Assembly: GCA_036785375.1 (NCBI GenBank)
Contig: JAWMAR010000020.1
Location: 9,052,001 to 9,116,000, forward strand
Reading direction: 5' to 3'
Source: Leucoraja ocellata
Lineage: Eukaryota
Length of the DNA: 64,000 nucleotides
Part shown: one piece after another, positions 34,295 through 64,000 of the stretch
Layout: every line of letters begins with the position of its first letter
Position numbering within the stretch: the first letter of the stretch is position 1
Program-made: the position numbers and the translations under genes
The notes under the pieces: model-generated
What the model was told of the DNA's origin: nothing
Database searches by the model: none
Seen by the model: only the letters and a program-made list of their open reading frames with translations

Positions 34295-34309
34295 GCATGT
34301 GTACGTCGG

Positions 34310-43989: not shown

Positions 43990-44297
43990 TTTAGTCTAGT
44001 TTAGAGATACAGCACAGAAACAGGCCCTTTGGCCCACTGAGTCCACACCGACCAGCGATCCCTGCACATTAATACAATCCTACACACACTGGGGACAATT
44101 TACAATGACACCAAGCCAATTAACCTACATACCTGTATGTTTTTGGAGTGTGGGAGGAAACTGGAGATCCTGGAGAAAACCCACGCAGGTCACGGGGAGA
44201 ACATACAAACTCTGTACAGACAGTACCCGTAGTCAGGATCGAACCCGGGTCTCTGGAACTGTAAGACTGTACCTCTACCGCTGCGCCACCGTGCCGC
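43990..44297 (-). mobile_element. V-SINE, full length
   Basis: Reverse-complement tail, V-domain, A/B boxes. Confidence 0.94.
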
Positions 44298-44805
44298 TTT
44301 CCTGCAGCATTATCTATTCACTTATTCAATTTTTATGTTTGTAATTATCTGATCCCATCTTTACTGCTTGGAATTCAGCATTTCTTCATGTTGCGGGCAA
44401 ACCCGGGTACCAAGCTTTCTATTTTCATCATCTTAATCGATACAGAATACAGTGAACAGTTCTGTATTCATCTATGACCTTTGCATGATCCCACCGGTTA
44501 GATTCTGCCCATTACTGTCTCCAACGTCACCTGCCTACTCTCTTGACTAGGTTGATGGTTTTGCAGCATTTTCAGGAACACCAGCAGTGTGAAATGCCTT
44601 CTGAAACTTTATACAGAATAGCATCTGGAAACAAAGCCCAGCCCATAACACACCTCTTCAAAATATTCACACAGGGCTCAATTCGTGAACCCGGGCAGCT
44701 TCTGTAGTTACGAGCAACGCACCTGTAAGCTCTTCACCTGGCTTTTTTATTGCCCTACGGTGGTGATCATCTGTTCCTGGATGTGTGTGCACTTTTGGAT
44801 ATTTT

Positions 44806-45157
44806 AAGTTTAGTTTAATTTAGTTTAGTTTATTTTAGTTTAGTTTAGTTTAGTTTAGTTTAGAGATACAGCGCGGAAACAGGCCCTTCGGCCCACCGAG
44901 TTTGCACCGTCCAGCGATCCCCGCATACCAACACTATCCGACACACCAGGGACAATCAACAATTTTACAAAGCCAATTAGCCTACAAACCTGTACGTCTT
45001 TGGAGTGTGGAAGGAAATCAGAACACCCGGAGAAAGCCTACACGGTCATGGAGAGAACGTACCAACTCCGTACAGACAGCACCCTTAGTTAGGATCGAAC
45101 CCGAGTCTCTAGAGCCGTAAGGCAGCAGCTCTAATGCTGCACCACTATGCCGTCCCT
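44806..45157 (-). mobile_element. V-SINE with expanded (TTTAG)n tail
   Basis: About 10 TTTAG units at 44808-44862; full body. Confidence 0.94.
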
Positions 45158-45289
45158 AACATAAAACAGTACAGCACAGGAGCAGGCCCTTCAGCCCGCA
45201 ACGTACATGCTAAACGTGATGCCTAGATGGCGCTGAAGCCAGGCGACTATTTGCGTCTGGTTCCAGGAGTGGATCTGCTATCATTCATT

Positions 45290-45500
45290 ACAATTGTTCC
45301 TCTCTTTTAAATCTTTACTTCATCAGCAGCACTTCTTACTCTAACTATGCTATTCCCTTTATCCTGTATCTGTACACTATGGGCGGCTTGATTTGTAATT
45401 ATGTGCAGTCTTTTCACTGACTGGACAGCACACAACAGAAAAGCTTTACGCTAGTTCTTGGTATGGGTGACCATAATAAACCAAACTAAACTAAACTAAG
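45290..45500 (+). mobile_element. Rex1/Babar 3' UTR
   Basis: Homologous to 2540-2690. Confidence 0.75.
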
Positions 45501-45694
45501 CTAATCTCCTCTGCCTGCATGTGATCCATATCCCTCTTAATAGCCACTTTCATAATAGCCAGTCCTTTAGCCCTTTAATCTTAATTTAATATTCATTCTA
45601 AAATTTCCTCTGCATCACTTAATTTTATGTACCTAGACATTATTGGGACTCTTCCTTCACTGTGGAAACAGAATATAGAACATCCATTTAACGA

Positions 45695-46348
45695 GAGTGC
45701 TCTCCATAATGTTTGGGACAAAGACACATCATTTATTTATTTGCTTCTGTACTCCACAATTTGAGATTGCCTCAAAACTCATTGGCCGGCAGTTCGTTCT
45801 ACAGCAAGACAATGATCCCAAACATACTGCTAAAACAAAAAGGAGTTTTTCAATGCTAAAAAATGGTCAATTCTTGAGTGGCCAAGTGAATCACCCGATC
45901 TGAACCCAATTGAGCATGCCTTTTGTATGCTGAAGAGGAAAGGGGACTAGCCCCCAAAACAAGCATAAACTAAAGATGGCTGCAATACAGGCCTGGCAGA
46001 GCATCACCAGAGAAGACACCCAACAACTGGTGATGTCCATGAATCGCAGACTTCAATCGCAGTCATTGCATGCAAAGGATATGTAACAACATACTAAACA
46101 TGACTACTTTCATTTAGATGACATTGCTGTGTCCCAAGCATTATGGTGCCCTGAAATGGGGGACTATGTATAAACACTGCTGTAATTTCTACAAGGTGAA
46201 ACCAAAATGTATAAAAATGGCTTTTATTAAATCTGAAAATGTGCATTTTAACCACGTGATTTTTTTCTATTACAAATCTCAAATTGTAGAGAACAGAGGC
46301 AAATAAATAAATGATGGGTCTTTCTCCCAAACATTATGGAGGGCACTG
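45695..46348 (+). mobile_element. Tc1-family transposon, internal-deletion derivative
   Basis: TIRs (c/g)agtgc.ctccataatgtttgg..aatttgagatt at both ends, TA after the right end; transposase remnant FVLQQDNDPKHTAK..LEWPSESPDLNPIEH. Confidence 0.92.
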
Positions 46349-46999
46349 TATTACTATCCGTTATAGTCTTTCCTGTGTCTGTCTCTAATGAATCCTTGGT
46401 CATTGTTTCTTTAGAACACAATCATTATATCAGAACAACTACTTAGTCAATCAGAACGAATAAAATTATTGTATCCTGTTTGTTATTTACTTAATGACGA
46501 TATATCACAGTGACACATCGGGGAATGAGATGTATCGAGATAAGCTGATGTGCCGTTGGGATCCTCTGGTGATGTATTATCTGTCAAGTGTCGAGTTTGA
46601 CATGTAGCCTCATGGCTTGTTATTTTTTCTGGACAATCATTTTCCATGTGAAATATAAATCTGCAGAGTATGTTAAAGGTGAGGCGGCAGATCTTTCAAC
46701 ATTCTCAATTGTTCTGTGTCCTCTGCATTGTATAGAAATAGCTGGCTTGGCAAAATAAAACTGTCTGCTCCCCAACAAGCAAATGATTACTGAGTCTAGC
46801 TTCCAATGGATTTAATCAGTAGCTTTAAAACCAAGCAACACTTTATTCCGCTGAACACCTTCGCTCAGTCCGCCTTGGCCTACGCGATCTCCCAGTTGTC
46901 AAACACTTTAACTCCTCTTTACATTCCCACCCTAGTGGCCTTGCTAATTTCACAGCCATCCTGCTTAATTTCGCTGTATCATTTATTAATTTCTAGTGT

Positions 47000-47295
47000 T
47001 CTTAGTTTCACATGTCTCCTCGTTATCACAGCCAACAATGGACCATTGTGGGCTCCACATTTCCTCAATCATCGGTGCTGCCTTTGATTTGTTCCTTTCA
47101 TACCTTTCATTAATTTGTTCCTCGTATCTTTTCATACCTCTAGTTTCCCTCTGCCCTGACTCTCAGTCAGGAGATGGGGCTCGGCCCGAAACGTCTCCAA
47201 TTCCTTTTCTCCAGAGATGCTGCCTGACCCGCTGAGTTACTCCTGCGTTTTGTGTCTATCTTCGGTGTAAACCTGCATCTGCAGTTCCTTCCTAA
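47000..47295 (+). mobile_element. Penelope-like 3' UTR, short unit and tail
   Basis: Homologous to 22490-22765; decayed core tcaggagatggggctcggcccgaaacgtc. Confidence 0.85.
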
Positions 47296-48174
47296 GCGCT
47301 CTGGTCATCCTGTGTGCTCCTGGCTCCTTTTAAACAGCAGGTGCCATGGAAGACCATCGCAATAAATAGCCACCTCCATGCACACAACAGTTCCTTGAGC
47401 ATTTTATGAATCACTAAGGAGTAACACAGCATCAAAAGAGGCTCATGAACTAGGCATGAAATAAGCCTCGTAGGTTGGTCTGATGCCCAAGCATCATCAG
47501 CACATTGGTTTTTTATGGCTCAGGCAGTCCTTTCAACACATTGCTTTATTACTCAATAAATACCTGTACAGAGGGGTTAGTACTTAATGGCACAGGCAAA
47601 GGTTCCCTTTCTGTGGTTTGGAACCGGGTAACAAAATATCCATTACTTTTAGTAATAATGCATAAGAATTTCTGGCTTCCTGCATTTGCTGTAATTATAT
47701 TTTTCTATACCCAGTCAACGAGCCCTGATTAAACTCTGGATTAAAGGGGCTGTTTCATTTCCTTCTGTTCATCCTATTCCAGTGCGGACTGTTGCGGCTT
47801 CCCAGTGTCGAGGCTTGCTTGTAATTGATGGGGTAGGCTTCGAGTGTAGGATTCTGATTGATTATCCTGGAGTCAGATGATGGAGCTAACTCCCAATCTT
47901 TCATGTTGAAATGTAATTGAGTGTGTGGGTGCTGAGAAAACAGTCCAGCATAGAAGGGGACTGTTCTGGCTATGCTACAAGGGCTTAGTAAAGAAACTAT
48001 TCTTTGAGTTATATTTTGATGTGGTTTGCAACCCATTAATTTTTACCATACTTATATCATACATGAATGGTTATCTGTGAATAGATTAATATTTATGCTA
48101 TAATGTAAAATTTATTACGTCAAAAGGAACAGAAAATGATTGCAGAATAACTGAGGTATTGTTATCAGTTCAAG

Positions 48175-48320
48175 TGTAGGAATGTCTAAACTGGTTTAAA
48201 CCAAGATGCTGGTTTAAACCGAAGATAGACACAAAATGCTGGAGCAACTCAACGGGTCAGGCAGCATCTCTGGAGAGAAGGAATGGGAGACTTTTCAGAT
48301 CAAGATCCTTCTCCAGATTC
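48175..48320 (-). mobile_element. Penelope short unit (decayed)
   Basis: gatagacacaaaatgctggag..gcagcatctctggagagaaggaatggg. Confidence 0.8.
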
Positions 48321-48552
48321 AATTTCAGATTCTGTTCATGATTTACTTTTTTTAATCTTGCCAGAGGAATATACTGCAATAAAATCTCAAACTAAATCAG
48401 ATAATAATACTGAAAAGTAAAGGGAGTCTTATGTTGCTACTTTTTCCAACTGTTCCCAATGCTTCGCAAAGATTTATGATGATCGGTGCCAGTGAGGAGA
48501 GATTTGCCTGGTAGCTCAGTTTATGTAGAAGCAGTAGGGGCCCCAGAATGTT

Positions 48553-48767
48553 TAGGAGGGAACTGCAAATGCTGGTTTACATCGAAGATGGACGCACAAT
48601 GCTGGAGTAACTCAGCGGGACAGGCAGCATCTCTGGAGAGAAGGAATGGGTGATGTTTCGGGTTGAGACCCTCCAGACGTCTTCAGTCTGAAGAAGGGTC
48701 CCGTGCCGAAATGTCGTTCATTCCTTCACAGCGGGCTGTGTTACTCCAGCATTTTGTATCTGTCTTC
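48553..48767. mobile_element. Penelope-derived inverted pair, about 15-bp TSD
   Basis: Pivot cttcag-t-ctgaag; flanks gggccccagaatgtt (48538-48552) and gggcccaggaatgtt (48768-48782). Confidence 0.82.
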
Positions 48768-49054
48768 GGGCCCAGGAATGTTGTTGGCTTCTTTCTGTAG
48801 GTGGGGGCCAACCAATGTATTGTTTGTGTTGTGCAAAGCTAGCATCTCCATTTGGTCATTCAGGGACAACTCATCCAAAACCAACACGAAAGATTCAAGT
48901 GCAAGTTACATTCATCACCCATTAGGTTTGTTTAATCTATTGCATCTGTTTAAAAGCAATCATACTGGAGACAAAGCATAAGGATGGTCATGTGTTCGCA
49001 CTGAGATCATCACCATGATAAATTCCCTCACATTGTGCCAGTTGGCAAGTCTCT

Positions 49055-49460
49055 CGTAGAGTCATACAGAGTGGAAACGGGCCCTTCGGTCCAACTTGCC
49101 CACACATGTCCCACCTACACTAATCCCACCTGCCTGCATTTGGCCCATATCCCTCTAAACCTCTCCCATCCATGTACCTGTCCAATTGTTTCTTAAACAT
49201 TATGATAATCCCTGCCTCAACTACCTCCTCTGGCAGCTTGTTCCATACACCCACCACCCTTTTGTGTGAAAAAGTTATCTCTCAGATTCCTATTAAACCA
49301 TTTCCCCTTCACCTTAACCCTATTCAGCCAGCTAGTGCTGGCTCGAAGGGCCGAATGGCTTACTCCTGCACCTAGTGTCTATTGTCTATATCCTCTGGTT
49401 CACAATAGCCCCATACTCTGAACCAGGGACTCTGTCCATCTACCTGATTTATTCCTCTCT
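49055..49460 (-). mobile_element. CR1 3' fragment with a short plus-strand CR1 tail inserted (about 49335-49390)
   Basis: Reverse-complement CR1 motifs. Confidence 0.85.
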
Positions 49461-50006
49461 GGGGCTTCTTAAAATTGGGCTGCTTTTATTTTGGGTGCTA
49501 GAAAGCTCACTGAAGTGCTTAAACTAGACTTTCAGCGAATCCAATGGGCAAATTTAACATGCATGATATACACACACATTTGCAGAAAGGCGAGGAAATG
49601 AACACTTCAGGAAACAAATCGAATTTCGCTCAGTATTTGTGTCGGGGTTGCCGATTACAGAAACTCAGCTGTAAACGTCCTTTCTTTTCACCTTTTGAAG
49701 ATGAAATCTGATTGCATGATGACAACACGGAGCTGAAGTAAATCAGCACAATAAAACACAGCTTACTGACGACGATTCTATAGAGAATACAAAAACACCG
49801 CAAATAAAATTTCCAAAAGTGTGCATTGTGTTGGAAACGGAATAACTACACTGCACTCATCAGTTTCTTTTGTTGAAAGCAGGGGTTAAACAGGCACATT
49901 AACCATTCTGTCGTGACAGGTGAGCTTGCTCTTGTTTGCAAAATGTTGAAAGGCATTGAAAAGATGTGCACTCTGCTCTGTTTCCTGTTTGTTTTGTGCA
50001 CTCCAG

Positions 50007-50132
50007 CTCAATCCAAACACAATTCAAACCGTGCAGGTGCGCTGGGACTCTGAAGCTAAAGAGCTTGTTTGGGCCAAAACAATTACATTTGGGTTTACAG
50101 ATGAAGAAACTGTTGCATGGGGTACATACATG
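50007..50132 (+). CDS. Candidate internal coding exon of an unidentified gene (126 nt)
   Basis: Long pyrimidine tract ..ctgtttcctgtttgttttgtgcactccag, strong donor ATG|gtatgt; phase-0 translation LNPNTIQTVQVRWDSEAKELVWAKTITFGFTDEETVAWGTYM; a second frame is also open. Confidence 0.45.
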
Positions 50133-50204
50133 GTATGTCCATGGTGTCATCTGCCTCTGTGTTTTGAATACAAAATTTAATGAGCACAATACTCCACAGA
50201 AGAA

Positions 50205-50320
50205 GTGTCTGAAGAAGAGACTCGATCCAAAACGTCACCCATTCCTTCTCTCCAGAGATGCTGCCTGTCCCACTGAGTTACTCCAGCTTTTTGTGCCTAT
50301 CTTCGGTTTAAACCAGCATT
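50205..50320 (+). mobile_element. Penelope short unit
   Basis: gtctgaagaagagactcgatccaaaacgtcacc. Confidence 0.82.
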
Positions 50321-50329
50321 CTACACTCT

Positions 50330-50815
50330 ACATCCAGAGGTGTTTTACGAGAATGATCCCAGGAATGCTTGGGTTAACACATGATGAGTGTTTGACGGCA
50401 CTGGGCCTGCACTCGCTGGAGTTTAGAAGGATGAGGGGGCACCTCATTGAAACTTAATAAATAGTGAAAGGCCTGGATAGCGTGGATGTGGAGAGGATGT
50501 TTCCACTAGTGAGAGAGTCGAGGACCAGAGGCAACAGCTTCAGAATAAAAGTATGTACCTTTAGAAAGGAGATGAGGAGGATTTTTTTTCATCAGAGGGT
50601 GGCAAATCTGTGGAATTCATTGCCACAGTAGACTGTGGATGCCAAGTCGTTTTAAAGTAATTTTAAAGCAGAGATTGACTGATTCTTGATTAATAAGGGT
50701 GTCAGGTGTATGGGGTGAAGAGAAGAGAATGGGGTTGAGAGGGAAAAATACATCAGCCATGATTGAATGACGGAGTAGACTTGATGGGCCAAATGGCCTA
50801 ATTCTGCTCTATAAA
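50330..50815 (+). mobile_element. CR1 LINE 3' fragment
   Basis: QR.FTRMIPGM.GL..DE.L.ALGLHSLEFRRMRG.LIET and tail. Confidence 0.9.
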
Positions 50816-50949
50816 ACATGAAAATATAAAATTGAGGCATATTTTCGCCTGGCATGGAATTAGAGGGCTAAATGGCCTCATTCCGTGGCACAAGTTTCTA
50901 CGATTCTACCATACGTTACAACATTGTGGGTTTAGTGCATAGAACTAAT

Positions 50950-51900
50950 AGAGCGGTACGGGGGTGCACCGGCAGAGTGACCCGGGTTCGATCCCGACTA
51001 TGGGTCCTGTCTGTACGGAGTTTGTACTTTCTGCCCGTGACTGCGTGGGATTTCTCTGACATCTTCGTTTTCCTCCCACACTCCAAAGATGGTCAAATTT
51101 GTGGATTAATAGAATAGAATGCCTTTTATTGTCATTCAAACGGCTTGGTTTGAACAAAATTGCATTTTCTACAGTCTTACATTCCAAAAAAAAATCCAAG
51201 ACCCACACTTAGCAGTTTACATAAACATCCATCACAGTGAATCTCCAACATCTCCTCACTGTGATGGAAGGCAAAGTCTTATCTCTTCCCTTTGTTCTTC
51301 TCCCGCGGTCCAGCAGTCCAACTGCAGCGTTGAGGCGAACTGGGGCTCCGATGTTAAAGCCCCTAGCGGACGATGGTAAGTCCTGTGGCCGTTTTAAGCC
51401 ACGCCGGGCGATGTTAGGCCCCGCTCCGAGTCCTTTAAACCCCGCGATTCCAGTGGGAGAAGTTGCCGTTGCGGGAGTTCGGGAAAGCTGTCTCCCACCA
51501 GAGACCTGCGAGCTCCCGATGTTCCTGTCCACCGGGCCTGCGGCCGGAGCCTCCGAAGTTCCGAAGTCGGGTCGCAGCCGTGTGCCACCACAGCTCTTCC
51601 CGCTCCGAAGTCGGACAGCTCCGCGATGTCAGGTCCGCAGGCTCCGCAACTGGAGCCCTCAGGCTAGTCCCAGCCGGAGGCCGCCACAGACTCCTCGATG
51701 TTAGGCCCAACGACAACGGAGACCCGACAGGGAAAAGGTCGGGTCCCCGTGCAGGGAAGAGATTAATTGGCTTGGTATAAGTATAAATTGTCTCTAGTGT
51801 GTGTGGGGTACCGTTAATGTGCATGGGTCGCTGGTCAGCGTGGACTTGGTGGGCCGAAGGGCCTGTTTCCATGCTGTATCACTAAACTAAACTAAACTAA
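50950..51900 (+). mobile_element. V-SINE split by a 650-bp CpG-rich minus-strand retroposed segment (about 51110-51760)
   Basis: SINE 5' half ends at about 51110, 3' half starts at about 51761; gattaat on both sides; insert ends gacaataaaaggca(ttcta)n on the minus strand. Confidence 0.8.
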
Positions 51901-52654
51901 ATAGAGCACAAATTTCTTTCCCGTTTTGTTTCATTCCATGGGTTAGTTGTCAGATTCAGAGGGAGGAGTGCCAATAAAAAACCAGCACCAGAATAGCCCT
52001 ATTCCCATTTTCTACCAAGAATCTTGCTCGGATCCATAGTCTTATAATTGCATCATGAATAAATTGTGACAGCCAGGTCATTTGTATGACAAGACTAGTC
52101 ATTGGACTAATGTGCTTCAGTCAGAATTAGATGTAAAAGTATTGTGCTCTGAAAATTCTCGTCTGAAGCTGGGGGAAAGACAACCTGTCTAAGGAGATCA
52201 TTTGAAGTTATTCTGAGAGGAGCTTGTTATAAAATGTGTTTACCTGAGCCAGACACTGAACACATCCTTCATGGTGACATATCTTTTCCTATCAGACGTG
52301 TGTGTAAATATATGCTTTACGTTGACCATAAGAATGACTGATCAAAGTGGAGTTACTGATTTTCTTCGACGTCTGGAGTCTATATAAACTGGTTGCCGTG
52401 TGTAAATGTCAGTAATATTTAAATACTGTATTACTGATTGTCCACTCTGTGCATTAGCTGCAATCAACTGCGTTAATATGGACAGTGCAGTATATAGCAA
52501 GAAATTTCAGTCAAAGTGGCAAAAGTACACTATCAAAGTGGTCAGGCTAATTATTCTAATGGAGATGTTCGAGTGATAGCTGAAAGCAAATGGATATTTT
52601 ACAATAATTGTGTTTGTATTTTTCTTCATATTTATCACAAAACTGTCTCGGTTC

Positions 52655-52977
52655 TCAGTTTACTTTAGTTTAGAGGTACAGCGCGGAAACAGGCCCTTCG
52701 GCCCACCGAGTCCGCCCCGACCAGCGACCATCTCCCCCTACATTAACACTACCCTACACACACTAGGGACAATTTACATACGTATACCAAACCAATTAAC
52801 CTACAAACCTCTACATCTTTGGAGTGTGGGAGGAAACCGAAGATCTCAGAGAAAACCAACGCAGGCCACGGGGAGAACGTACAAACTCCGTACAGACAGC
52901 ACCCGTAGTCGGGATCGAACCCGGGTCTCCGGCGCTGCAAACGCTGGAAGGCAGCAACTCTGCCGCTGCGCCACCGT
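52655..52977 (-). mobile_element. V-SINE, full length (variant head)
   Basis: Full body; 9-nt cagc duplication in the head. Confidence 0.94.
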
Positions 52978-53067
52978 TACTTGAGGGTTAGGGCTTCTTT
53001 TTAGCATCTTAGGTTGTTTTTGCAATGCTAAACCTCGAATAAACTTAAACTGTTCTTGCAATTGTTG

Positions 53068-53790
53068 CAAACCAGGGCAGGACCTATACAGTAAATGGTG
53101 GGACCGTGGGGTGGGTTGTAGAGCAGAGGGGTCAGGGAGTGCAGGTACATTGTTCCTTTAAAGTGGCATCAAGGTAGATGGGGTGGTCTAGAGGCTTACA
53201 GTACATTGGCTTCAACAGTCAGCGTATTGAGGAAAGAAGTTGGGATGATATGTCACAGTTGCACAAGACATTGGTGAGGCCGCATTTGGGTTTTTTTAGT
53301 CACCCTGCTCTAGGAGGGATGTTGTTAAGCTAGAAAGAGTGCAGAGAATATTTATGAGGATGTTGCCAGCGCTAAAGGGCCTGAGCTATAGGGAGAGGCT
53401 GGGTAGGCTTGGATTTTATTCCTTGGAGTGCAGGTGAATGAAGATGTCATATTCAGGTATGGAAGATCATGGGGGAAACAGATAGGGTGAATGCTCAGTC
53501 TTTTACCCAGAGCAGGGGAATCAAGATCAGAGGTTTAAGGTGAGAGGGGAAACTTGTAGTAGGAACCTGCAGATCAACGTTTTCACATAGAGAGGGTGGT
53601 GGATGTATGGAACCAGCCACCAGACAAGGTAGTTGAGGCAAGAGACATTTGGACAGTTACATAGACACGAAAGGTTTAGAGGGAAATGGACAAAAAGTGG
53701 GCAAAATGGGACTAGTGTGGATGGGGCATCTTGGTCGGCATGGGCAAGATGGGCTGCAAGGCCTGTTTCCGTGCACTGTGACCCCCATGA
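53068..53790 (+). mobile_element. Older CR1 LINE 3' part
   Basis: Decayed LVRPHL, LERVQR, LSYRERLGRLG.YSLE motifs and tail. Confidence 0.85.
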
Positions 53791-54134
53791 GTCGAAGTAT
53801 CTCATGCTGTTCCACATATAAAACTGGTGCCAATTCACAGAAACATTTAGTCTGGGAGAAATGCTGTGATAATATAAATTCCAAACCTTGTAATGAACAT
53901 CGTGCTTTGTAATTTGACCGATAATTAAAGTTTGCGACTTTGTACATCGCAAACGGTCTCTTTTCTTGATGTGTAAACATAATTGATGCCTTTTGAAACT
54001 CTCACTTTAAAGGAAAGCATTGTTGACTTTAGCATTGATCAAAGCTGGGAAAATACTGAATAATTTTGAGATGTGAAAAGATAATAGTTGTTTTCATCTT
54101 TTATTCTCATAGTCACAGAAAGCAGGAAGTTAGG

Positions 54135-54645
54135 AAACAACACAGAAACAGGCCCTTCACCCCAACGCCCATGTCAAGCAAGGTACCCCGTCTAAGTGGG
54201 TCCCATTTGACCTTTCGGGTTCATATTTTTCTAAACCTTCCTATTCATGTACCTGTCTAAGTGTCTTTTCATTGTTATAATTGTTCCTGCCTTAATTACC
54301 ACTTCTAGCAGCTCATTCCATATACCCACCACCCTCTGAGTGAAAAAGTGGCCACTCAGGTTCCAGTTGCATCTATCTACTCTTATCTTAAACCTATGTC
54401 CTCCGGTTCCTAATTCTTCTATCTTGGTTTAATGATTGTGTGCATTCACCCGAGCAGTTCACCTCTTAATCTGTCCACCTCTATAAGATCACCTACAAGA
54501 GCCTCCTGTGCTCGAAGGAATAAAGTCTGTGGTTGCCCAATCTCTCCCTAAGTCCCGGGAACATCCTCGTAATTCTTCTTTGCACTCTTTCCAGCTTAAT
54601 GTTATCCTTCCTATAGCAGGGTTGTCAAACCTGAACACAATACTC
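54135..54645 (-). mobile_element. Older CR1 LINE 3' part
   Basis: Reverse-complement CR1 motifs. Confidence 0.8.
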
Positions 54646-54677
54646 AGTTCAGTTCAGTTCAGTTCAGTTTAGTGTCA

Positions 54678-55444
54678 CATAGAAACATAGAAATTAGGTG
54701 CAGGAGTAGGCCATTCGGCCCTTCGAGCCTGCACCGCCATTCAATATGATCATGGCTGATCATCCAACTCAGTATCCCGTACCTGCCATCTCTCCATACC
54801 CCCTGATCCCCTTAGCCACAAGGGCCACATCTAACTCCCTCTTAAATATAGCCAATGAACTGGCCTCAACTACACTCTGTGGCAGAGAGTTCCAGAGATT
54901 CACCACTCTCTGCGTGAAAAAAGTTCTTCTCATCTCGGTTTTAAAGGATTTCCCCTTTATCCTTAAGCTGTGACCCCTTGTCCTGGACTTCCCTAACATC
55001 GGGAACAATCTTCCTGCATCTAGCCTGTCCAACCCCTTAAGAATTTTGTAAGTTTCTATAAGATCCCCTCTCAATCTTCTAAATTCTAGAGAGTATAAAC
55101 CAAGTCTATCCAGTCTTTCTTCATAAGACAGTCCTGACATCCCAGGAATCAGTCTGGTGAACCGTCTCTGCACTCCCTCTATGGCAATAATGTCCTTCCT
55201 CAGATTTGGAGACCAAAACTGTACGCAATACTCCAGGTGTGGTCTCACCAAGACCCTGTACAACTGCAGTAGAACCTCTCTGCTCCTATACTCAAATCCT
55301 TTTGCAATGAAAGCTAACATACCATTCGCTTTCTTTACTGCCTGCTGCACCTGCATGCCTACCTTCAATGACTGGTGTACCATGACACCCAGGTCTCGCT
55401 GCATCTCCCCCTTTCCCAATCGGCCACCATTTAGATAATAAATC
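54678..55444 (-). mobile_element. Young 5'-truncated CR1 LINE with uninterrupted 225-aa ORF2 C-terminus, inserted in a Rex tail (55445-55620)
   Basis: ORF 54769-55446 RDLGV..KKANGML..LVRPHLEYCVQFWSP..RRLRGDLIETYK; (TTTCTATG)n tail. Confidence 0.96.
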
Positions 55445-55949
55445 ACGTGTGCCGTGGTACAATGAAAAGCTTTTGTTGCGTGCTAACCAGTCAGCAGAAA
55501 GATAAAACATGATTACAATCGAACTATTTACAGTCTACAGATATGTGATAAGGGTATTATGTTTAGTGAAAGGTAAAGTCAGCAAAGTCCGATCAAGGAT
55601 AGTCTGAGGGTCACCGATGAGATTAGTAAGGGTATCAAAGGTTATGGGGAGAAGACAGGAGAATGGGATTGAAAGGGAAAAATGGATCAGCTGTGATCGA
55701 ATGGCGGAGTAGACTCCATGTGGGCCAAATGGCCCAATCCTGCACCTATGTCTAATGGTCTTATGTTGGGTCAGATCACACATAGTTCAGACTGGGGATA
55801 GATGCCAGAGCTTTTTGCTGATGGACTTCAGTGAACCAGACCGGCTTTCACAGCAACCCAGAGGTTTTGTGGTCACCATCACGAAAGTCCCCCCCCCTGT
55901 CATTGTACTAGTTTCATTGTCGTCCTGTTCAGTTTCATTGTCCGAATAA

Positions 55950-56182
55950 CTCGTTATCACCTAATCCACAGCCAACAATGGACCATATTGGGCTCCACCT
56001 TTCCTTGATTATTGTTACATTTTGCATATCATTTGTTCTGTATCTCTCTATATCCCCCTTTAAATATCTCTCGTTCCCCTCTCCCCTGACTGAAGAAGGG
56101 TCTCGACCTGAAACGTCACATATTCCTTTTCTCCAGAGATGCTGCCTGACCCGTTGAGTTACTCCAGCTTTCTGTGTCTATC
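55950..56182 (+). mobile_element. Penelope-like 3' UTR with hammerhead unit
   Basis: ctgaagaagggtctcgacctgaaacgtc at about 56090-56117. Confidence 0.88.
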
Positions 56183-56227
56183 ACTATAGTCTAGTTTGTC
56201 TTTTTAAACTTCAGATGGACAGATTCA

Positions 56228-56545
56228 GGGCGGCCCAGTGGCACAGCAGTAGAGTCGTTGCTTTACAGCGCCAGAGATCCGTGTCCAGTCTTGACTATGG
56301 GTGCTGTCTGTATGGAGTTTGTACGTTTTCCCAGTGACCTCGTGGGTTTTCCCATGTGCTCCGGTTTCTTTCCACACTCCAAAGACGTACAGGTTTGTAG
56401 GTTAATTTGGCTTTGGTAAAAATGATACATTGTCCCTAGTGTGTAGGATAGTGCTGGTGTACAAGGATCACTGGTCGGCAGGGACTCGGTGGGCCAAGGG
56501 ACTTGTTTTTGCGCTGAGTCTCTAAACTGAATTAAACTAAACTAA
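56228..56545 (+). mobile_element. V-SINE, full length
   Basis: Head, V-domain, tail. Confidence 0.92.
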
Positions 56546-57227
56546 ATTTGAAGGTAAATTCCAAGCAGCTATGGTGCGATTTAACTTCCTGCCTCCCGAA
56601 TGTTAGTCCACTCCTTTGAATTACGAGGCAAATAAAGTAAATACTGTGCCTATTCCATAGCCTTTAAATAACATGATCACATTGTTAGATTTCTTTTCTG
56701 CACCAATTTTCAACACAAAATAAAACAGAAAAGAAAATGCTTCTGATTTTGAAATAAAATGGATTTTCACAGGTTTAAAAGGGAACGTCACAGACAACAG
56801 TGTTTGGCAGAGTCTGTATAAAGTCAGATACCAACACCATAACCCAGTCCAACCGGGGACAAAAGAAGAATCGATATCCCACACTGGAGGTGCCTAACTA
56901 TCATTCACACCACAGGGAGAGGGAATGGCACTTTGTACTGAGCTCGGCAAGAAGCTACTGTCAAAGAAAGGCAGGATTTGATTAGTAGCTTTCTGACCAA
57001 AGCCCTCAAATTAGGGGGTGGGTCAGGTACCTGTAGTGTTGCTATTGTTACACGCTGTTAGTACATTTCTTTTTTAGAATGTGCTGTGTATTTCTTTCAT
57101 GAGACTATATATATATTTCTAAGCATGCCCAGTATCTTAGACTTTGTACTAAGTAAAGCGGCCATTTTGTTTTTCAAGTGAATGTTCTTCTGCAGTGAAT
57201 TTATATGTATTAGGGCTTAACTTTTCC

Positions 57228-57530
57228 TTTAGAGATGCAGGCCCTTTGGCCTACCGAGTCCACGCTAATCAGCGATCCCCGCACACTAACACTATACTAC
57301 ACGCAAAGGGACAATTTCCAATTTTACCAAGCCAATTAGCCTAAAAAAAGCGTACATCTTTGGAGCACCCGGAGAAAACCACGCAGGTCAAAGGTTTCAA
57401 AGGTCTTTTATTGCCACTTGTACCAATTAAGATACAGTGATATGCAAATTACCATACAGCCATACGAAAGGAAAAGAGCAACAAGACACACAAATACATA
57501 AAAACTAACATCCATTCCCCTACTCTGGGC
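57228..57530 (-). mobile_element. V-SINE 3' half followed by the minus-strand tail of the CpG-rich retroposed family
   Basis: SINE tail and V-domain to about 57390; then reverse complement of a 12900-13050-like tail with (cctttga) repeats. Confidence 0.7.
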
Positions 57531-57751
57531 ATGAGAGTGCCCCCCCTCCCCCATGTTTTGAGAGGTGGGGGAAATCCCCCCCCCCCCCATGTTTTCTTGT
57601 ATGTCGAAACGTAAGTTAGGCCTATTCTCCGGACCCTTTACCCCCCTAAGTGCTCCCACCCACCACGGAAGGAAGCCAGCGCTACGCTCTTCCCAATTAA
57701 GCCAGTGCTAACTGTGATTACCGTATCATGCGTACGCATATACGTGTATAT

Positions 57752-57815
57752 CAGGGATCTCTAAACTATGGCCCGCGGGCCACATCCGGCCCGCCATGAG
57801 ATTTTTTCCGGCCCT
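57752..57815 (+). mobile_element. hAT-Charlie-type left end (orphan)
   Basis: cagggatctctaaactatggcccgcgggccacatccggcccgc resembles Charlie-type termini; no right end seen. Confidence 0.55.
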
Positions 57816-58114
57816 CAGGACAGAGCGGTGTCAGGTAGGAGTTGAGTCGATTTGAGTCGGGGAGCACGGCGGCCCGGAGCTGCTCCTAGTGCTGTTACCG
57901 GGTAGGTCCCTCGAATTGTCAGAGCCGAGACATCTCAGGGCCGCCATGAAGAAGGGAGCAAAGATGGAGAGTGGGTGGTTGTTCGGCGGCGATGGCAGCG
58001 GTCAGAATGGGTCAGCGGCACGTTATAACATCCGATCGTTCCTTTCTGCCCGCTCGCTCTCCCCTCTATGCCGTCTCTCTTTGTGTCCTCTCCATGTTTT
58101 AAAAGCGATTGCCG

Positions 58115-58520
58115 CGACCCCCCCACCATCACAGGATCTACAGAAGCACTGCATCAAAAAGGCAGCCAGCATCATCAGAGACCCACATCACCCTGCCCAC
58201 ATTCTGATTTCTCTCCAACCACCAGGAAGAAGGTACAGGAGTCTGAAAACCTTGACCACAATGTCAAGAATAGCTTCTTCCCGACAAGCATTAGGCTCTT
58301 AAACACTACACAACATTAAACTCATCCATGAATTTCTATGGACTGTCTTCAGTCGCATGAAGGAGTTTGCGTGTTTTGCACTTGCATTGCGGTTATTAAA
58401 GTATTGATTTGATTTTGCTTGTTATACATTAACTGTGTACATTGTGTTTGCAGTCCTGTTAAGCTGCAGGTAAGAGTTTAATTGTTCTACTGTCAGCACA
58501 TATTACTATGCAATGCTCGT
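58115..58520 (+). mobile_element. Rex1/Babar 3' fragment
   Basis: CIKKAASIIRDPHHPAH..GRRYRSLKT..NSFFP.SIRLLN. Confidence 0.85.
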
Positions 58521-58564
58521 GACACCCTATTGACACTCTCTCTTGATCCTCTTCAGACTCAGTG

Positions 58565-58697
58565 GAGAAGGGTGAGGGGGAGGGGGGAGGGGGAGGAGGG
58601 GTGAGGGGGAGGGGTGAGAGGGAGGGGTGAGGGGGAGGGGGGAGGGGGAGGGGTGAGGGGGAGGGGTGAGAGGGAGGGGTGAGAGGGAGGGGTGAGG
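58565..58697 (+). repeat. G-rich (GGGTGA/GGGGGA) low-complexity tandem repeat
   Basis: Many runs of 3-5 G separated by 1-4 nt. Confidence 0.9.
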
Positions 58698-58734
58698 CAG
58701 TGGCGGGCAGGCATTAGGTGGAATGATGTCCCTA

Positions 58735-59250
58735 GTCCGCACCGACCAGTGTAACACTGCCCTACACACCCTAGGGACAATTTTATACTTCTTCTAAGCC
58801 AATTAACCAACAATGTCTTTGGAGTGTGGGAGGAAACCGATAATCTCGGAGAGAACCCACGCGATCACGGGGAGAAAGTACAAACTCCGTACAGACAGCG
58901 CCCGTAGCCGGGATCGAACCCGGGTCTCTGGAGCTGCTACCGCTACACCACCTGTTCACGTATCCCTGTTTTGCATTCTTGTATTGTTCAGTGTTGTCAC
59001 CCACCAAGCTGTACGGTGTACAGTCGCGGTGGCGCAGCGGTATAGTTGCTGCCTTCCAGCAAAATGCAGCGCCAGAGACCCGGGTTGGACCCCGACTACG
59101 GGCGCTGTTTGTACGGAGTTTGTACGTTCTCCCCGTGACCTGCGTGAGTTTTCTCCGAGATCTTCGATTTCCTCCCACATTCCAAAGACGTACAAGTTTG
59201 TAGGTGAATTGGCTTGGTAAATGTAAACATTGTCCAGTATAAAATTGCCC
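58735..59250. mobile_element. Two divergently oriented V-SINEs (minus 58735-58950, plus 59023-59250)
   Basis: Reverse-complement V-domains about 80 bp apart. Confidence 0.85.
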
Positions 59251-60178
59251 AACTTCCAGTATCGTCCCTGGTGGACTCTTCGGAAGGTACAAGGTACAAC
59301 TTGGCTACGTGATTTTATTCTCTCCCTGACTTAATCTTCCGTGCATTCCGTGCCCGCGACTCGTTCACCATCACTTGGGTTCATTGTTCACTCAGCATCA
59401 TGCAGCCAGTCCTTTGGTTTTGTAGTAACTCCCCCCCTACTGTTTGGTCCCTCTGTCTGCCATTTAAATGCTGACAATGACTCTTTTCTACGGGGTGAGA
59501 GATACGTGCAGACCACTCTCGGCAGACACAATCGTTATTTGTTTCCAGACTCCCACAAAATGTGCAAAATATCAGCATTTTCAAGCCAGTGGCTTAACTG
59601 TGAGAGGTGGGGGGCGGAGAGGGGGGGAGAGGGAAAGGCGGTTTCCATCTGTTGAACTTTTGAGTCCTGTTCAGAATCCATGCATCACGTCTCAGAGTGT
59701 GGGTCGTAGTCTGATGCTTGTCGAATGTCACGTAGAAAGCTACCCAAGTGGGGGTGCGTCCACGCACATAAACCAAGCGCCGTTTCTTTATCAGTTGCTA
59801 AATGAACTGCTATGGATTTGCAGTCAAATCTCACGTTCACATTTCAGCTTTGCACCACCACTGCTTCACACAGTTTTTCATCAATCACCTCACACTCTTT
59901 CCCTTTGCAATCATTTTTGCTCACTATGTGCGTTTTATTATAAGGGATTGATATGCTGCTCTAGAATTACAAACTTTAGTTACTAGTATTCATATATATC
60001 ACCAAACCTTGCTGCAAAATATTTATTTTTGTTTTAAACTTTAGACTTTAGAGATATATGGACTAGGCAAACGAAGAAGGTACATCAACACGTTTTGGTC
60101 TTTTTTTTGTGTTTCTTTTTATTATTTTTCGTTTTTGTTTTTTTATTTTTTTGTAAGTTTTTACAGATACCTCTAAAC

Positions 60179-60867
60179 CAGGGGTGGGGAACCTGCGGCT
60201 TTAGGGCCGCATGCCTTCAATGCCATTAAGTGCGGCGTTTTGAATGAATCCAAATTTTGTAGAACAAATCCTTGTATTTTTATTAATATGTTTTTGTTCG
60301 TCTTTTATTATTTTTATTTTAATCTTAAAATAAACGTATTTAAAATACCAAAAATTAAATGATGATTCAATGAATTAATCCTCCCCGACTGACGGCCACA
60401 ATTAAAACATTAATAAGTCATGAGGGCTATTTTAACACCTGTTGTGCTCATGATTTAGTTCTAATGTACGTTAACTTTGACAAACGCACGAAAAATGCTT
60501 TCTTGCTTTTCAACCACATTGCTGCGAATCTACATTCTCCTACCTAACCCAAATCAAGACGCCCTTAAGGTCACAAATGACGGACACCCATCTGGAAGAT
60601 CATCTGAAACTGCGTACCTCCATGTTGCAACCAAATATTCAAATGCTTTCCCAAAAAAAACAGTCACAACAAAGTCATTAAAAGGTTAATTAACTTTAGA
60701 ATTAACCATTTTTTTTTCATTTTCTTGAAGTTAGTACATAGTAGTTAGATTTTTACAAAATAATGTACATTTTGAAGTATATCTAATTGAAGTTTCTTGG
60801 ATGCGGCCTTATTACATTACAGCTAACTTAATGCGGCATTCCAACATGAAAAGGTTCCCCACCCCTG
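60179..60867 (+). mobile_element. Non-autonomous hAT-Charlie-type transposon retaining the transposase C-terminus
   Basis: TIRs caggggtggggaacct / aggttccccacccctg; perfect 8-bp TSD CTCTAAAC; remnant FSTT.CCESTFSYLTQIKTPLRSQMTDTHLEDHLKL..QPNIQML..KQSQQSH*. Confidence 0.93.
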
Positions 60868-61139
60868 CTCTAAACAAAACTAGGCTTCCTTCTCTGCATT
60901 TTAGAATAACCTTTTAGATTCTACAAGCAAGGATTGTCAGATTTCATTTCTTCAGCAAAAGAGTAAAAGTGCTGTTGTTCATTAAATATAATGGATGTTG
61001 GCAATATTCTCCTGTGGAATCCCCCTCTATATTAAGGAATGTTTTGATAAAATTTAAATAAAGCCTATTATATCAAGAAAATCAAATGGATTATCAGCCC
61101 AAGTCATTTAGGAACTATGCCATGAACTCTATGGATGCA

Positions 61140-61960
61140 AAAGAAGGACTTGTATCTGTATGGTTCCTTTACCAGCATCTTAATGCTCGTTACGGGCAAA
61201 TAAGTGTGTAATATAGATCATGTGAACCCGATTACCACTCTGCAATGTAATGAGAATCTTAGTCGCTTTTTGGTGATGCTGATTAGTTTAGTTTAGAGAT
61301 ACAGCGCGGTAACGGTCCATTCGGCCCACCAGGTCCACGCCGACCAGCGATCCCTGCTCATTAACATGATTCGACACACACTAGGGACTTGTGAGTAGGT
61401 GTACACACTGAACTTTCTTTTCTCTCTCGTTTATCGTATTGTTTACAGCGTACTATGTTTACATATTCTGTTGTGCTGAAGCAAGTGAGAATTTCATTGT
61501 TCTATCTGGGACACATGACAATAAAACACTCTTGACCCTTGACTCTTGACTTGACAAGTTTTTTTTACATTTACCAAGCCAATTAACCTACAAACCTGAA
61601 CATCTTTGGAGTGGGGGAGGAAACCGAAGATGTCGGAGAAAACCCACGCAAGTCACAGGGAGAACGTACAAACTCCATACAGACAGCACCCGTAGTCTCC
61701 GGTGCTGCAAGCGCTGTAAGGCAGCAACTCTACCGCTGTGCCACTAAACTGCAGATTAAAAGGTGACTAATGACCAGATTGCCATGGATAAATCCTCTAC
61801 GTTTAACATGATGATATATGTCCACACATGCAATTTTTTAGTCCCTTACCTGAGTGATAGTATCTCTGACAATGCGGCACTCACATGGTACTACCCTCTG
61901 TGTTGGATTGGATTTAATGCACATGCCTTTGAAGTTTGGCTGAATCTCCAACCTTGTATA
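61140..61960 (-). mobile_element. Fragmented ancient Deu-domain SINE (SacSINE1/AmnSINE-like)
   Basis: Tail-like 61140-61283; Deu-like atctctgacaatgcggcactcacatggtact..tgttggattggatt at 61860-61915; recalled similarity only. Confidence 0.45.
61284..61745 (-). mobile_element. V-SINE with a nested plus-strand Rex-type tail (about 61390-61555)
   Basis: SINE split after ctagggac; insert ends gacaataaaacac(tcttgac)n. Confidence 0.88.
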
Positions 61961-62054
61961 GTTTAAATGTGTAGGAAGGAACTGCAGGTGCTTGTTTAAA
62001 CTGAAGGGTATTGACCCACTGAGTTACTCCAGCTTTTTGTGGCTATCATCCTGT

Positions 62055-62338
62055 TTAGATTAGTTTAGTTTAGAGATTTGTTAAATAAATAAACAGGCCC
62101 TTCGGCCCACCAAAATCCATGCTGACCAGCGATCCCTGTACTCTAGCATTACCCTACACACAAGCGACAACTTGCAATTTTTACCAAAGCCAATTAACCT
62201 ACAAAACCGGAGTGCCCGGAAAAAACATGGTCACGGGGAGAACGTACAAACTCTGCGCAGACAACACCCGTAGTCAGGATCAAACCTGGGTGTCAGGTGC
62301 TGCACGTTAGTAACTCTACTGCTGCACCACTGTGCCGC
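62055..62338 (-). mobile_element. V-SINE
   Basis: Reverse-complement tail, partial V-domain, head. Confidence 0.88.
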
Positions 62339-62564
62339 TCCAAAGAGTCACTGTTGATACAATATGTGGGAACAGAGAAATTAGTGTCAGAATAACAATA
62401 AATACAATTCTTTATGAAAATGATAATAGACTTCTATTGTGTGATTTACTGCACTAGCATGCATTTGGATTGGGCGTTTCCTAACATGACTCACCTTGTT
62501 CTTTCATTACCATTCACACATGCAAAAACATCATTAGTGGGCACAATATTCATCTCTGTCTTAC

Positions 62565-62878
62565 CATAGAGTCATAGTGTCATAGTCTTACAGCGTGGAA
62601 ACAGGCACTTTGGCTCAACTTGCCCACACCGACCATCCACACTAGTCCCACCTGCCTGCATTTGGCCCATATCCCTCTAAACTCGTCCTATCCATGTCCT
62701 TGTTTAAATGTTTCTTAAACATTGTGATAGTCCCTGCCTCAACTGCCAAATCCGGCAGCTCGTTCCATACGCTCACAGTCACCACCCTTTGAATGAAAAA
62801 CGTACCCCTCAGGTTCCTGTTAAATCTTTCCACTGATCACCCTAAACCTTTGTCCTCTGGTTCTCGATTCCCCTACTC
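62565..62878 (-). mobile_element. CR1 3' fragment
   Basis: ORF 62642-62833 RNLRGTFFIQRVV..WNELP. Confidence 0.9.
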
Positions 62879-63274
62879 GTAGAGCAGAAAATGAATGAGA
62901 GTGAAAGTGAGCAGTGGACGTTTGACAGAAGGCACTGTGCATTTGCAGAGCTGAGAGCATTTAGATCCAGCACGTATCTCTGCTTGTGCAATTGTCTTGT
63001 AATGTTAAATGCTGCTGTTAATAATACAAGGCACCAGAGCAGTGGAAGATGCTGAAAGCTCCACAGGAAGAAGCCTGAGGCATTTAATATCCCAATCCAT
63101 GATTCAGTTACCTTGCATTCGAGCTCATGTAATCAACATTTTGCCATTCTTTTTATTTATTTAACAAATTAGCCCAACTGCTAATGGATGGCCAAATGAA
63201 GATGGCCCCTTCATCCAGTATTATCCTTTGCTCTTGTTCATTCTCCATTTTGCAGGGATGTGGGTGTTTTTAGT

Positions 63275-63457
63275 AGGAAAGAACTGCAGATGCTGGCTTA
63301 AATCGAAGATAGACACAAAATGCTGGAGTGGGTGACGTTTCGGGTCAAGACCCTTCATCAGACTGAAAAAGGGTCTCGACCCGAAACGTCACCCATTCAT
63401 TCTCTCCAGAGATGCTACCTGACCCACTGAGTTACTCCAGCATTTTGTGTCTATCAT
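63275..63457. mobile_element. Penelope-derived inverted pair, 14-bp TSD
   Basis: Pivot tcag-a-ctga at 63358-63366; flanks tgggtgtttttagt (63261-63274) and tggttgtttttagt (63458-63471). Confidence 0.9.
63331..63364 (-). ncRNA. Minimal type-I hammerhead ribozyme motif (Penelope-associated)
   Basis: Minus strand reads agu-CUGAUGA-A-GGGU(cuug)ACCC-GAAA-C-GUC-acc: intact core, 4-bp helix II, palindromic ACGU in place of helix III. Confidence 0.6.
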
Positions 63458-63804
63458 TGGTTGTTTTTAGTGTTGCTTTTTTTCACCACCCACATATCAA
63501 ATGGATTTAATTCATGTAACGCACTTTTAAACATAATTAGGCAGAATGTATTATGTATAACCGGGCTCTTCTGCTGCCTGCCTTGTGCAAGGGGCAGTGT
63601 CCAGTGCCTGTGTTGTCCAGCTGTGCACACGCACACACACACTGGGGAGATGGATGGACGCAGCTTCCCGCTCCTGTACCCGCGGCGCTGTCACTGCCGA
63701 TGATGATCAGCCGGGAGCCCCCAAAGGCAGATCCCGTGCGAGGTTCCCACTGCACTCTCCGGAACACAAGGACGGACAATGCAGCTAATATCAAACCATT
63801 GATC

Positions 63805-64000
63805 GAGGGAAGGAACTGCAGATGCGGGTTTAAACTGAAGATAGACACAAAATGCTGGTAACTCAGCTGATCAAGAGTCAGGAGTCAAGTGTTTTATTGT
63901 CATATGTCCAGATAGAACAATTACATTCTTACTTGCAGCAGCACAACAGAATATGTAAACATAGTACACTGTAAACAATATTAAAACTGAGGGGAAAAAG
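63805..64000 (-). mobile_element. Penelope tail fragment followed by a minus-strand Rex-type tail
   Basis: ggaaggaactgcagatgc.ggtttaaa..; then reverse complement of the 61420-61550 tail. Confidence 0.8.

Follow-up and report, generated by a model that had tools for sequence, protein, structure and literature searches.

Minimal hammerhead ribozymes sit in the pLTRs of metazoan Penelope-like elements (PMC4209133, Cervera and de la Pena 2014). The descriptor published for them asks for CUGANGA with an optional extra nucleotide, a stem I of 3-7 bp, and a stem II of 3-7 bp with a loop of 3-10 nt and G10.1-C11.1 closing, together with a GAAA-NN-UH box whose 15.2-16.2 is palindromic; Fig. S3 of the same paper shows cases with a 2-bp helix I, from Drosophila virilis, D. 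rhopaloa, D. kikkawai, Culex and Oikopleura (PMC4209133). The monomers are inactive and dimers cleave weakly in vitro (PMC4209133). Penelope-like elements occur in all vertebrates studied, elephant shark included (PMC4350176).

In the endonuclease-bearing Penelope elements of Adineta vaga the inverted pLTR overlaps the direct one, a 31-bp tail is optional, target duplications are 8-10 bp, solo pLTRs occur, and palindromes at the junctions are read as self-priming (PMC3846280). The Poseidon element PAc of Anolis carolinensis has its tail between two reverse transcriptase (RT) start sites, one of which lies 111-118 nt past the start of stem II; its hammerhead cleaves only with the element's protein, uncleaved RNA is the substrate for insertion, and no RNA-seq ends fall at the cut (PMC11167929). 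Retrozymes derive from Penelope pLTRs, which act in trans (PMC3846280; bioRxiv 10.64898/2026.07.22.740005). These non-LTR retrozymes are hammerhead-bearing pLTR derivatives, many of them monomers, with one chondrichthyan genome represented, and one of nine Xenopus dimers with predicted hammerheads cleaved (bioRxiv 10.64898/2026.07.22.740005).

The association of Penelope elements with minimal hammerheads is already known; the present repeat extends it to a very abundant family in a cartilaginous fish. A literature search by title and start of abstract, with repeat databases outside its scope, listed no study of this repeat family, and no paper combining 'hammerhead ribozyme' with 'elasmobranch'. 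The repeat is described from a 64-kb stretch of the Leucoraja ocellata genome, hereafter the window, which holds 593 N in three assembly gaps (14094-14339, 18290-18434 and 19386-19587); a copy at 18287 starts at a gap edge.

A repeat with a minimal hammerhead core

The hammerhead core motif was matched 11 times with at most three mismatches in the 64-kb window and not once in 100 shuffles. A profile built from ten copies of the repeat unit gave 38 matches, 22 of which cover the core. The 38 matches merge into 29 blocks totalling 3692 bases, or 5.8% of the window and one block per 2.2 kb. The unit is about 135 nt long and runs from -7 to +129 relative to hammerhead C3. An earlier inspection of the letters (the sequence-only reading) had estimated about 25 copies of a 130-140 nt unit at one copy per 2-3 kb, which these measurements bear out.

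The consensus motif runs U2.1, CUGAAGA, one additional A, helix II (GGGU/ACCC closing a loop of 4 nt), GAAA, CG, UC and AC. Position N7 is A in 21 of the 22 core-bearing copies and T in the copy at 63361 only. Three features that had been recognised by inspection are present in this consensus: the extra nucleotide after A9 of a minimal-hammerhead-type core (CUGAAGA-A), the palindromic helix III (GAAA-CG-UC, with a C15.2-G16.2 pair) and a helix I of only about 2 bp.

The skate repeat shares with the published minimal hammerheads CUGANGA plus an extra nucleotide, G10.1-C11.1 and a GAAA-CG-UC core with the palindromic 15.2-16.2; in both, the upstream sequence is U-rich and copies are mostly single, with some close opposite-strand pairs. 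The consensus helix I of 2 bp, by contrast, falls below the 3-bp minimum of the descriptor, so the motif is a 2-bp-helix-I variant like the cases of Fig. S3 and not a descriptor match (PMC4209133). Cartilaginous fish are absent from the motifs of that figure. When the descriptor was re-implemented with a stem I of 3 bp, it passed only the copy at 22634(+), which has lost G16.2; with a 2-bp stem I it found three places in the window and with none required five, and the control gave 1 in 20 shuffled windows. Comparison with Rfam had been put forward as a check, and no Rfam hammerhead family matched anywhere in the window at E <=1. Both Rfam and descriptor searches miss the skate repeat because its helix I is 2 bp. 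Neither the core nor the flank pattern had a match in the viral contigs and prokaryote genomes scanned. The density of 22 core copies in 64 kb greatly exceeds the descriptor counts of about 4,000 in coelacanth and 9,000 in Xenopus, which are not like for like.

A single hairpin insertion at 63275-63461

The sequence-only reading had assigned a hammerhead motif to 63275-63457. The motif is there; what had been overlooked is that the interval is one hairpin insertion with a second, plus-strand motif. Its features are:

63275-63461, both strands: the complete Penelope pLTR insertion, its two arms head to head, with a target duplication of 10 bp on either side
63265-63274, plus strand: left target-site duplication, 10 bp
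63462-63471, plus strand: right target-site duplication, 10 bp
63332-63363, minus strand: formally intact minimal hammerhead (C3 at 63361, C17 at 63334, helix II 4 bp, helix I 2 bp)
63361-63392, plus strand: a further hammerhead motif, opposite in strand to the first, with C3 at 63363 and a G8-to-A change at 63368
63358-63366, both strands: TCAG-N-CTGA micro-palindrome, with the inversion pivot at 63362, which is hammerhead position 2.1
63275-63329, minus strand: 3' portion of the minus arm, which meets the hammerhead across a 38-nt internal deletion (segments -7..+32 and +71..+127)
63393-63455, plus strand: 3' part of the plus arm, stopping at the short, tail-less end

The tail of about 35 nt is carried by the minus arm only. 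The minus-arm motif is the sole copy of the 22 in which core, helices II and III and the 2-bp helix I are all intact; the claim of an intact core at 63331-63364 on the minus strand therefore holds, with helix II paired 4/4 and C15.2-G16.2 present. A transcript of either strand is predicted to fold as one hairpin (-97.4 kcal/mol, z -11.5). For the minus strand, the hairpin is computed at -98.3 kcal/mol and the forced hammerhead fold at -55.4 kcal/mol, a cost of 43 kcal/mol, and by this folding model the formally intact hammerhead is locked inside its own hairpin. The two motifs lie on opposite strands, and hence a cis dimer is impossible.

Hallmarks of a Penelope pLTR

Eight of the 29 blocks are two-armed insertions, in which an inverted, 5'-truncated copy adjoins the 5' end. 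Besides the locus above, the following copies were catalogued:

35209-35704, minus strand: longest remnant, with the C-terminus of a GIY-YIG endonuclease (35704-35492), a 3' UTR of about 190 nt and the unit 35306-35209, most of whose hammerhead is deleted
46850-47296, plus strand: second copy with an endonuclease remnant (46850-46930), then 3' UTR and the unit 47161-47296, with U4 and A6 changed
22223-22763, both strands: two-armed insertion with inverted unit 22223-22353, 3' UTR remnant and direct unit 22628-22763, both arms tailed
55790-56213, plus strand: copy with upstream 3' UTR remnant and an intact core, helix I having lost its 5' strand (start approximate)
26143-26480, minus strand: copy with upstream 3' UTR remnant (outer limit approximate)
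9947-10068, plus strand: diverged copy with a short upstream 3' UTR match
3981-4253, both strands: head-to-head hairpin insertion, only the plus arm tailed
5616-5754, both strands: two-armed insertion, tail on the plus arm only
15790-16011, both strands: head-to-head hairpin insertion, only the minus arm tailed
23255-23432, both strands: head-to-head hairpin insertion, only the minus arm tailed, target duplication of 12 bp
48551-48769, both strands: head-to-head hairpin insertion, only the minus arm tailed, with its pivot at position 2.1
61970-62063, both strands: short two-armed insertion without a hammerhead
25650-25798, plus strand: solo copy that folds back over 10 bp at position 2.1 and has a target duplication
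7663-7798, minus strand: solo copy with a 9-bp common flank
18766-18857, plus strand: solo tail-less copy with a 10-bp target duplication
29239-29370, minus strand: solo copy, core intact, one helix II mismatch
40360-40492, minus strand: solo copy, CpG-decayed
48203-48319, minus strand: solo copy, decayed
50206-50328, plus strand: solo copy, G12 changed to A

The 3' ends of the 38 matches are bimodal, with one group of 20 at +122..+129 and another of 12 at +84..+103 relative to C3 (the profile model ends at +129, where the flanks diverge). The two groups of ends imply an optional tail of about 35 nt. It is present on one arm only in seven of the eight two-armed insertions and on both arms in 22223-22763. 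Of 15 insertions, 8 have common flanks of at least 7 bp and 4 of at least 9 bp; among 210 control pairs the corresponding numbers are 11 and 1. The target duplications vary from 7 to 12 bp, and 7 of the 15 insertions tested have none of 7 bp or more. There are no head-to-tail tandems in the window, where same-strand cores are 370-21498 nt apart.

The 5' ends are likewise clustered, with 22 of 38 matches starting at -7..0, six of them extending into the 3' UTR. Among the core-bearing copies, 16 of 22 start within about 7 nt of C3 without the common upstream 3' UTR. The cut site is at +28, and none of the 38 matches begins within 5 nt of it; by this measure the copies would have arisen from uncleaved RNA. 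The native sequence before the core, read from the 3'-UTR copies and from the loose-end consensus of sequencing reads, is a TCAG-T-CTGA micro-palindrome. Position 2.1 is the exact pivot of two hairpin insertions (63362 and 48687), another two pivot within about 8 nt of it (4090 and 15914), and short fold-backs at position 2.1 are found in the copies at 25670 (10 bp) and 22346 (6 bp).

The inverted pLTR, one-arm tail, short target duplications and solo pLTRs are likenesses to the Adineta vaga elements; the skate repeat differs from these, which have few copies, in being very numerous, in pivoting on position 2.1 and in having relatives that point to Neptune (PMC3846280). With PAc it shares a hammerhead in the pLTR, an RT start site of PAc that is close to the skate long end at +122..+129 from C3, insertion from RNA that is uncleaved (probably so for the skate repeat) and the lack of RNA-seq ends at the cut site. 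PAc belongs to another clade, and its cleavage, which needs the protein, has been demonstrated, whereas the skate hammerhead is a candidate ribozyme (PMC11167929).

The copies 25663-25798(+) and 26143-26277(-) are independent of each other and stand tail to tail, 336 nt apart; a read-through transcript would contain a 139-bp duplex that is 84% paired, like those of the hairpin insertions. It is possible that such duplexes and the hairpin insertions are substrates of ADAR or Dicer. A separate hairpin or MITE-like family is present at 28335-28752, 23448-23661, 43133-43337 and 36747-36982. In the first three of these the arms start with AAAGGGCCTGTCCCA or a sequence close to it; one member is nested, and one adjoins a pLTR hairpin at 23448. 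A different repeat lies head to head over long stretches at 58815-59189 and 16028-16487, with arms of 47-73 nt that are 85-92% complementary.

Endonuclease remnants and relatives

Sequence upstream of the core is common to six copies (22628, 56084, 47161, 26277, 35306 and, weakly, 9947). A 71-codon frame at 35704-35492 is located 190 nt upstream of the core of copy 35306(-), and a shorter endonuclease frame at 46850-46930 precedes the unit 47161(+). Both remnants match the relative P0009, at E 3e-11 for 35704-35492(-) and E 1e-3 for 46850-46930(+). A word-index search with the 71-aa endonuclease remnant gave no match; phmmer succeeded, with 38 proteins at E <=0.001. Its top match is a Rhinoraja gene model, and six of the eight proteins looked up are named, from Leucoraja, Hypanus and Rhincodon. 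The Pfam GIY-YIG family matched P0009 (E 0.0013) and P0005 (E 0.008), both below the curated cut-off, and none of the other 22 of the 24 relatives scanned. The sequence-only reading had pointed to Penelope-like elements, and the endonuclease remnant, tail, inverted arms and target duplications show that it was right.

P0030 and P0009 align across the endonuclease and a C-x4-C-x2-C linker. Upstream of its endonuclease P0030 has RT-like motifs that are visible by eye and give no Pfam match. A tblastn search with P0030 matched its endonuclease part only, so that no RT remnant was found in the window; for this reason the full element and its clade rest on relatives. Neptune elements possess a CX2-5CxxC zinc-finger-like linker between RT and endonuclease, and Nematis elements also have a zinc-finger-like linker (PMC8557442). 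The source Penelope element probably belongs to the Neptune clade, to judge by a linker known from the relatives only. Four of these relatives (P0001, P0005, P0009 and P0029) are public skate or ray gene models in which an endonuclease fragment is fused to unrelated coding sequence; P0001 models a receptor gene to whose end the endonuclease piece is fused, and a neuromedin-U receptor 1 model with an endonuclease fragment is an example of such fusions. They are probably annotation artefacts or cases of exonisation.

A metagenome scan with the core pattern, covering 11 of 64 parts, returned at least 123 loci, 122 of which were analysed. Among the loci listed (122 read), there are 25 endonuclease C-terminal matches in 24 loci, and 24 of the 25 have a hammerhead 73-165 nt downstream on the same strand, which independently supports an endonuclease followed by a hammerhead. 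The loci listed represent other Penelope families, whose homology to the repeat unit is limited to the core; one of them matches the repeat-unit model, at positions 5-44. They hold 128 minimal hammerheads (L001-L122) with varied, paired helices I, and six of the loci (L032, L039, L074, L085, L095 and L106) hold two hammerheads on opposite strands.

Integrity and conservation of the hammerhead

The core is complete in 12 of the 22 copies; seven of these also have C15.2-G16.2, two in addition a full helix II, and one the 2-bp helix I as well. Helix II has its four pairs in 11 of 22 copies, with 80% of cells paired. Helix I reaches three pairs in 3 of 22 copies; by comparison, it has 3-7 bp in 105 of the 128 hammerheads among the metagenome loci listed. 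At CpG sites within the motif 24% are changed. The individual copies cited by the sequence-only reading can be judged in this light. At 56090(+) the core is present and the 2.1-1.1 pair is not; at 29366(-) the motif is there with one helix II mismatch, and at 22346(-) with G10.1 changed to C, again without the 2.1-1.1 pair in either. The copies at 22634 and 25670, which it took to be CpG-decayed, are so, both having changed G16.2 to A.

Helix covariation, also proposed as a check, is absent within the window for helix II as for the helices in general: the score is 0.119 against 0.130 in shuffled alignments, and 332 of 500 shuffles score as high (19 of the 22 core copies, aligned as one family; three with a large deletion or insertion were left out). 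The expectation that the core would be more conserved than its flanks is borne out. Non-CpG sites depart from the consensus in 7 of 212 core cells and in 99 of 1178 flank cells (seven polymorphic columns excluded from the flanks; p = 0.007), in a small sample whose cells are not independent and whose alignment ends favour the 5' half of the core, and sequence context may contribute. None of 5000 base-matched draws was as strong, and the core, at 0.028, is more conserved than any 11-column window of the flanks (0.061-0.203). In an alignment of 25 rows, variants common to several copies fall in 2 of 247 core cells and 119 of 1509 flank cells; the figures for single-copy variants are 5 of 247 and 61 of 1509 (p = 0.15). 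That shared variants avoid the core is most simply read as selection in the source elements, followed by near-neutral decay of the copies. These patterns suggest that the constraint on the core acted in source elements and not in the copies; single-copy variants are half as frequent in the core, a difference that is not significant, and some selection on the copies themselves may have occurred.

Pairing in trans through ACGU is computed to add about 3 kcal/mol (-12.7 against -9.6), and an alternative dimer fold reaches -30.3. The nearest same-strand cores are 370 nt apart and neither is intact. Constrained folding found no extended helix I, bar that of copy 22634, which has an arm of 3+4 bp at 5.6 kcal/mol above its own minimum. 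A splice acceptor at the CAG before the core, swapping in a longer helix I as at an intron end of D. virilis, was considered and set aside: the acceptors score modestly (1.6-5.4), such motifs generally have U-rich sequence upstream, and the loose ends of RNA run on into unspliced upstream sequence.

Transcripts, abundance and age

Sequencing reads were analysed for 44001-64000 at a likeness of 85, using one polyA RNA run of a related species (organism D) and three contig sets. RNA reads of organism D cover the repeat on both strands (302/302 at 48003-48669 and 306/261 at 63344-64000), and unique bins have a depth near 0 in this single polyA run, about 6% of which was read. Repeat reads from both strands beside near-silent unique bins fit passenger transcription from other loci. 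The sequence-only reading had suggested looking for RNA ends at the cleavage site; no pile-up of starts or ends was found in this run, a weak test given the fragmented polyA library, the related species and the 6% of the run. In X6 the contig depth is 2.5-3.6 million over repeat bins and about 35 over unique pieces. This is not a copy number; together with the density in the window it suggests that the family numbers 10^5 copies or more. In organisms D and E, contigs cross from unique sequence into copies 47161 and 48203, which are present at the same places in those species, so that these insertions predate the species split. The median tip branch of the repeat copies is 0.092.

The sequence-only reading had thought it possible that copies lie inside host introns. 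The analysis identified no host gene in the window, nor any host exon or splice joint, in a table of joints swamped by repeats. A 123-nt open stretch at 50010-50132(+), flanked by AG and GT, resembles an exon on inspection; it was rejected, having no homologue (Pfam E 0.042 only, Atlas <0.9) and not being among the eight candidates of a crude splice scan. Other repeats in the window include one at 51338-52004, which has strong and strand-biased RNA coverage in organism D (1251 against 263) and thousands of loose ends at 51706 and 51745. The 3' part of an abundant LINE, which we take to be CR1-like, lies at 54772-55482(-) and is the deepest-covered bin in DNA and RNA runs. At 10444-12772(-) there is a broken LINE-type reverse transcriptase in two frames, with matches to Pfam RVT_1 and ALKBH8_N, and smaller LINE-type RT pieces lie at 2048-2377 and near 34264-34779.

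Discussion

Available data indicate, with a probability that we put at about 0.88, that the unit of about 135 nt is the 3' pLTR of an endonuclease-bearing Penelope element, that the hammerhead core was selected in source elements and that the copies are decaying passengers. We propose that the source element was ordered as RT, GIY-YIG endonuclease, a 3' UTR of about 190 nt, minimal hammerhead, about 65 nt and an optional 35-nt tail; this order is observed from the C-terminus of the endonuclease onward, and the RT would be placed by its relatives. The protein of the element would nick DNA and reverse-transcribe uncleaved RNA from two internal start sites, putatively giving the short end near +92..+99 and the long end near +128, as the distribution of ends and the behaviour of other elements suggest. 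Synthesis of cDNA would usually halt or self-prime just upstream of the core, at the TCAG-T-CTGA micro-palindrome. Halting and folding back would yield the solo units, the short fold-backs and the head-to-head hairpins, in which one arm is tailed and the target is duplicated over 7-12 bp. In the source element the hammerhead was most likely a weak, protein-assisted ribozyme, as in the Anolis Poseidon element, and the dispersed copies would be old passengers decaying mostly at CpG rather than working ribozymes.

The short unit could instead be no by-product of 5' truncation but a non-autonomous element, like a monomeric retrozyme or a SINE, whose transcript begins shortly before the hammerhead and which a Penelope protein mobilises in trans. 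This reading is compatible with a Penelope origin and differs in the template RNA. The many core copies without common 3' UTR that start close to C3 would be expected of it, as would the several sublineages in the tree, which have weak support, and there is precedent in pLTRs that act in trans and yield retrozymes (PMC3846280; bioRxiv 10.64898/2026.07.22.740005). The skate repeat resembles non-LTR retrozymes as a short hammerhead-bearing derivative of Penelope pLTRs in a chondrichthyan, but these form head-to-tail tandems of at least two units, of which the window has none (bioRxiv 10.64898/2026.07.22.740005). Moreover, copies with and without 3' UTR are mixed in the tree with no starred branch between them, the polyA RNA of the related species is about equal on both strands with no pile-up of ends, and the micro-palindrome accounts for the clustered 5' ends without a separate transcript. 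We regard the non-autonomous unit as unlikely, though worth keeping in view.

The sequence-only reading went further and held that the genome disperses a potentially self-cleaving module, two copies of which might cleave as an ACGU-paired dimer. In its strongest form, thousands of working minimal hammerheads would cleave host transcripts in this way. The conserved core, complete in 12 of 22 copies, speaks for activity, as do the weak cleavage of minimal hammerhead dimers in vitro (PMC4209133) and the cleavage of the Anolis motif once the element's protein is added (PMC11167929). Against it, (i) the one copy with all helices is predicted to be hairpin-locked by 43 kcal/mol; (ii) helix I has 2 bp, and helix II lacks covariation; (iii) the gain from ACGU pairing is small and the competing dimer fold is lower; (iv) the window has no tandem, and RNA ends do not pile up in the weak test available; (v) eight of nine Xenopus dimers with predicted hammerheads stayed uncleaved (bioRxiv 10.64898/2026.07.22.740005). 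Neither the dispersed module nor the dimer survives this comparison well, and dimer cleavage of host transcripts is very improbable. That the hairpin copies are MITEs of a DNA transposon, with hammerhead letters that are incidental, is hardly credible: many insertions are near-perfect palindromes of 100-270 bp, but their arms are unequal, with the tail on one side, their duplications are 7-12 bp, the solo copies are polar and linked to a Penelope endonuclease remnant, and endonuclease and hammerhead keep their order in 23 of 24 loci with an endonuclease C-terminal match among the metagenome loci listed.

One further idea follows the protein-assisted cleavage of the Anolis element to its limit. 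In a lineage with about 10^5 or more core copies, the Penelope protein could trigger cleavage across the transcriptome, the 2-bp helix I keeping the copies silent by themselves, the core remaining under constraint and the CUGA box doubling as the self-priming pivot of the hairpin insertions. This is a long shot. If it were true, about one in three copies (core and helix III intact) would be cleavable whenever Penelope protein is expressed, and a genome would carry 10^5 or more core copies, far above published vertebrate counts. The family would gain this greater importance only if protein-assisted cleavage of host transcripts were demonstrated. As a pLTR family of a Penelope element, it offers a natural data set on the Penelope mechanism, in which two RT starts, a fold-back pivot at position 2.1 and insertion from uncleaved RNA may be followed across many copies.
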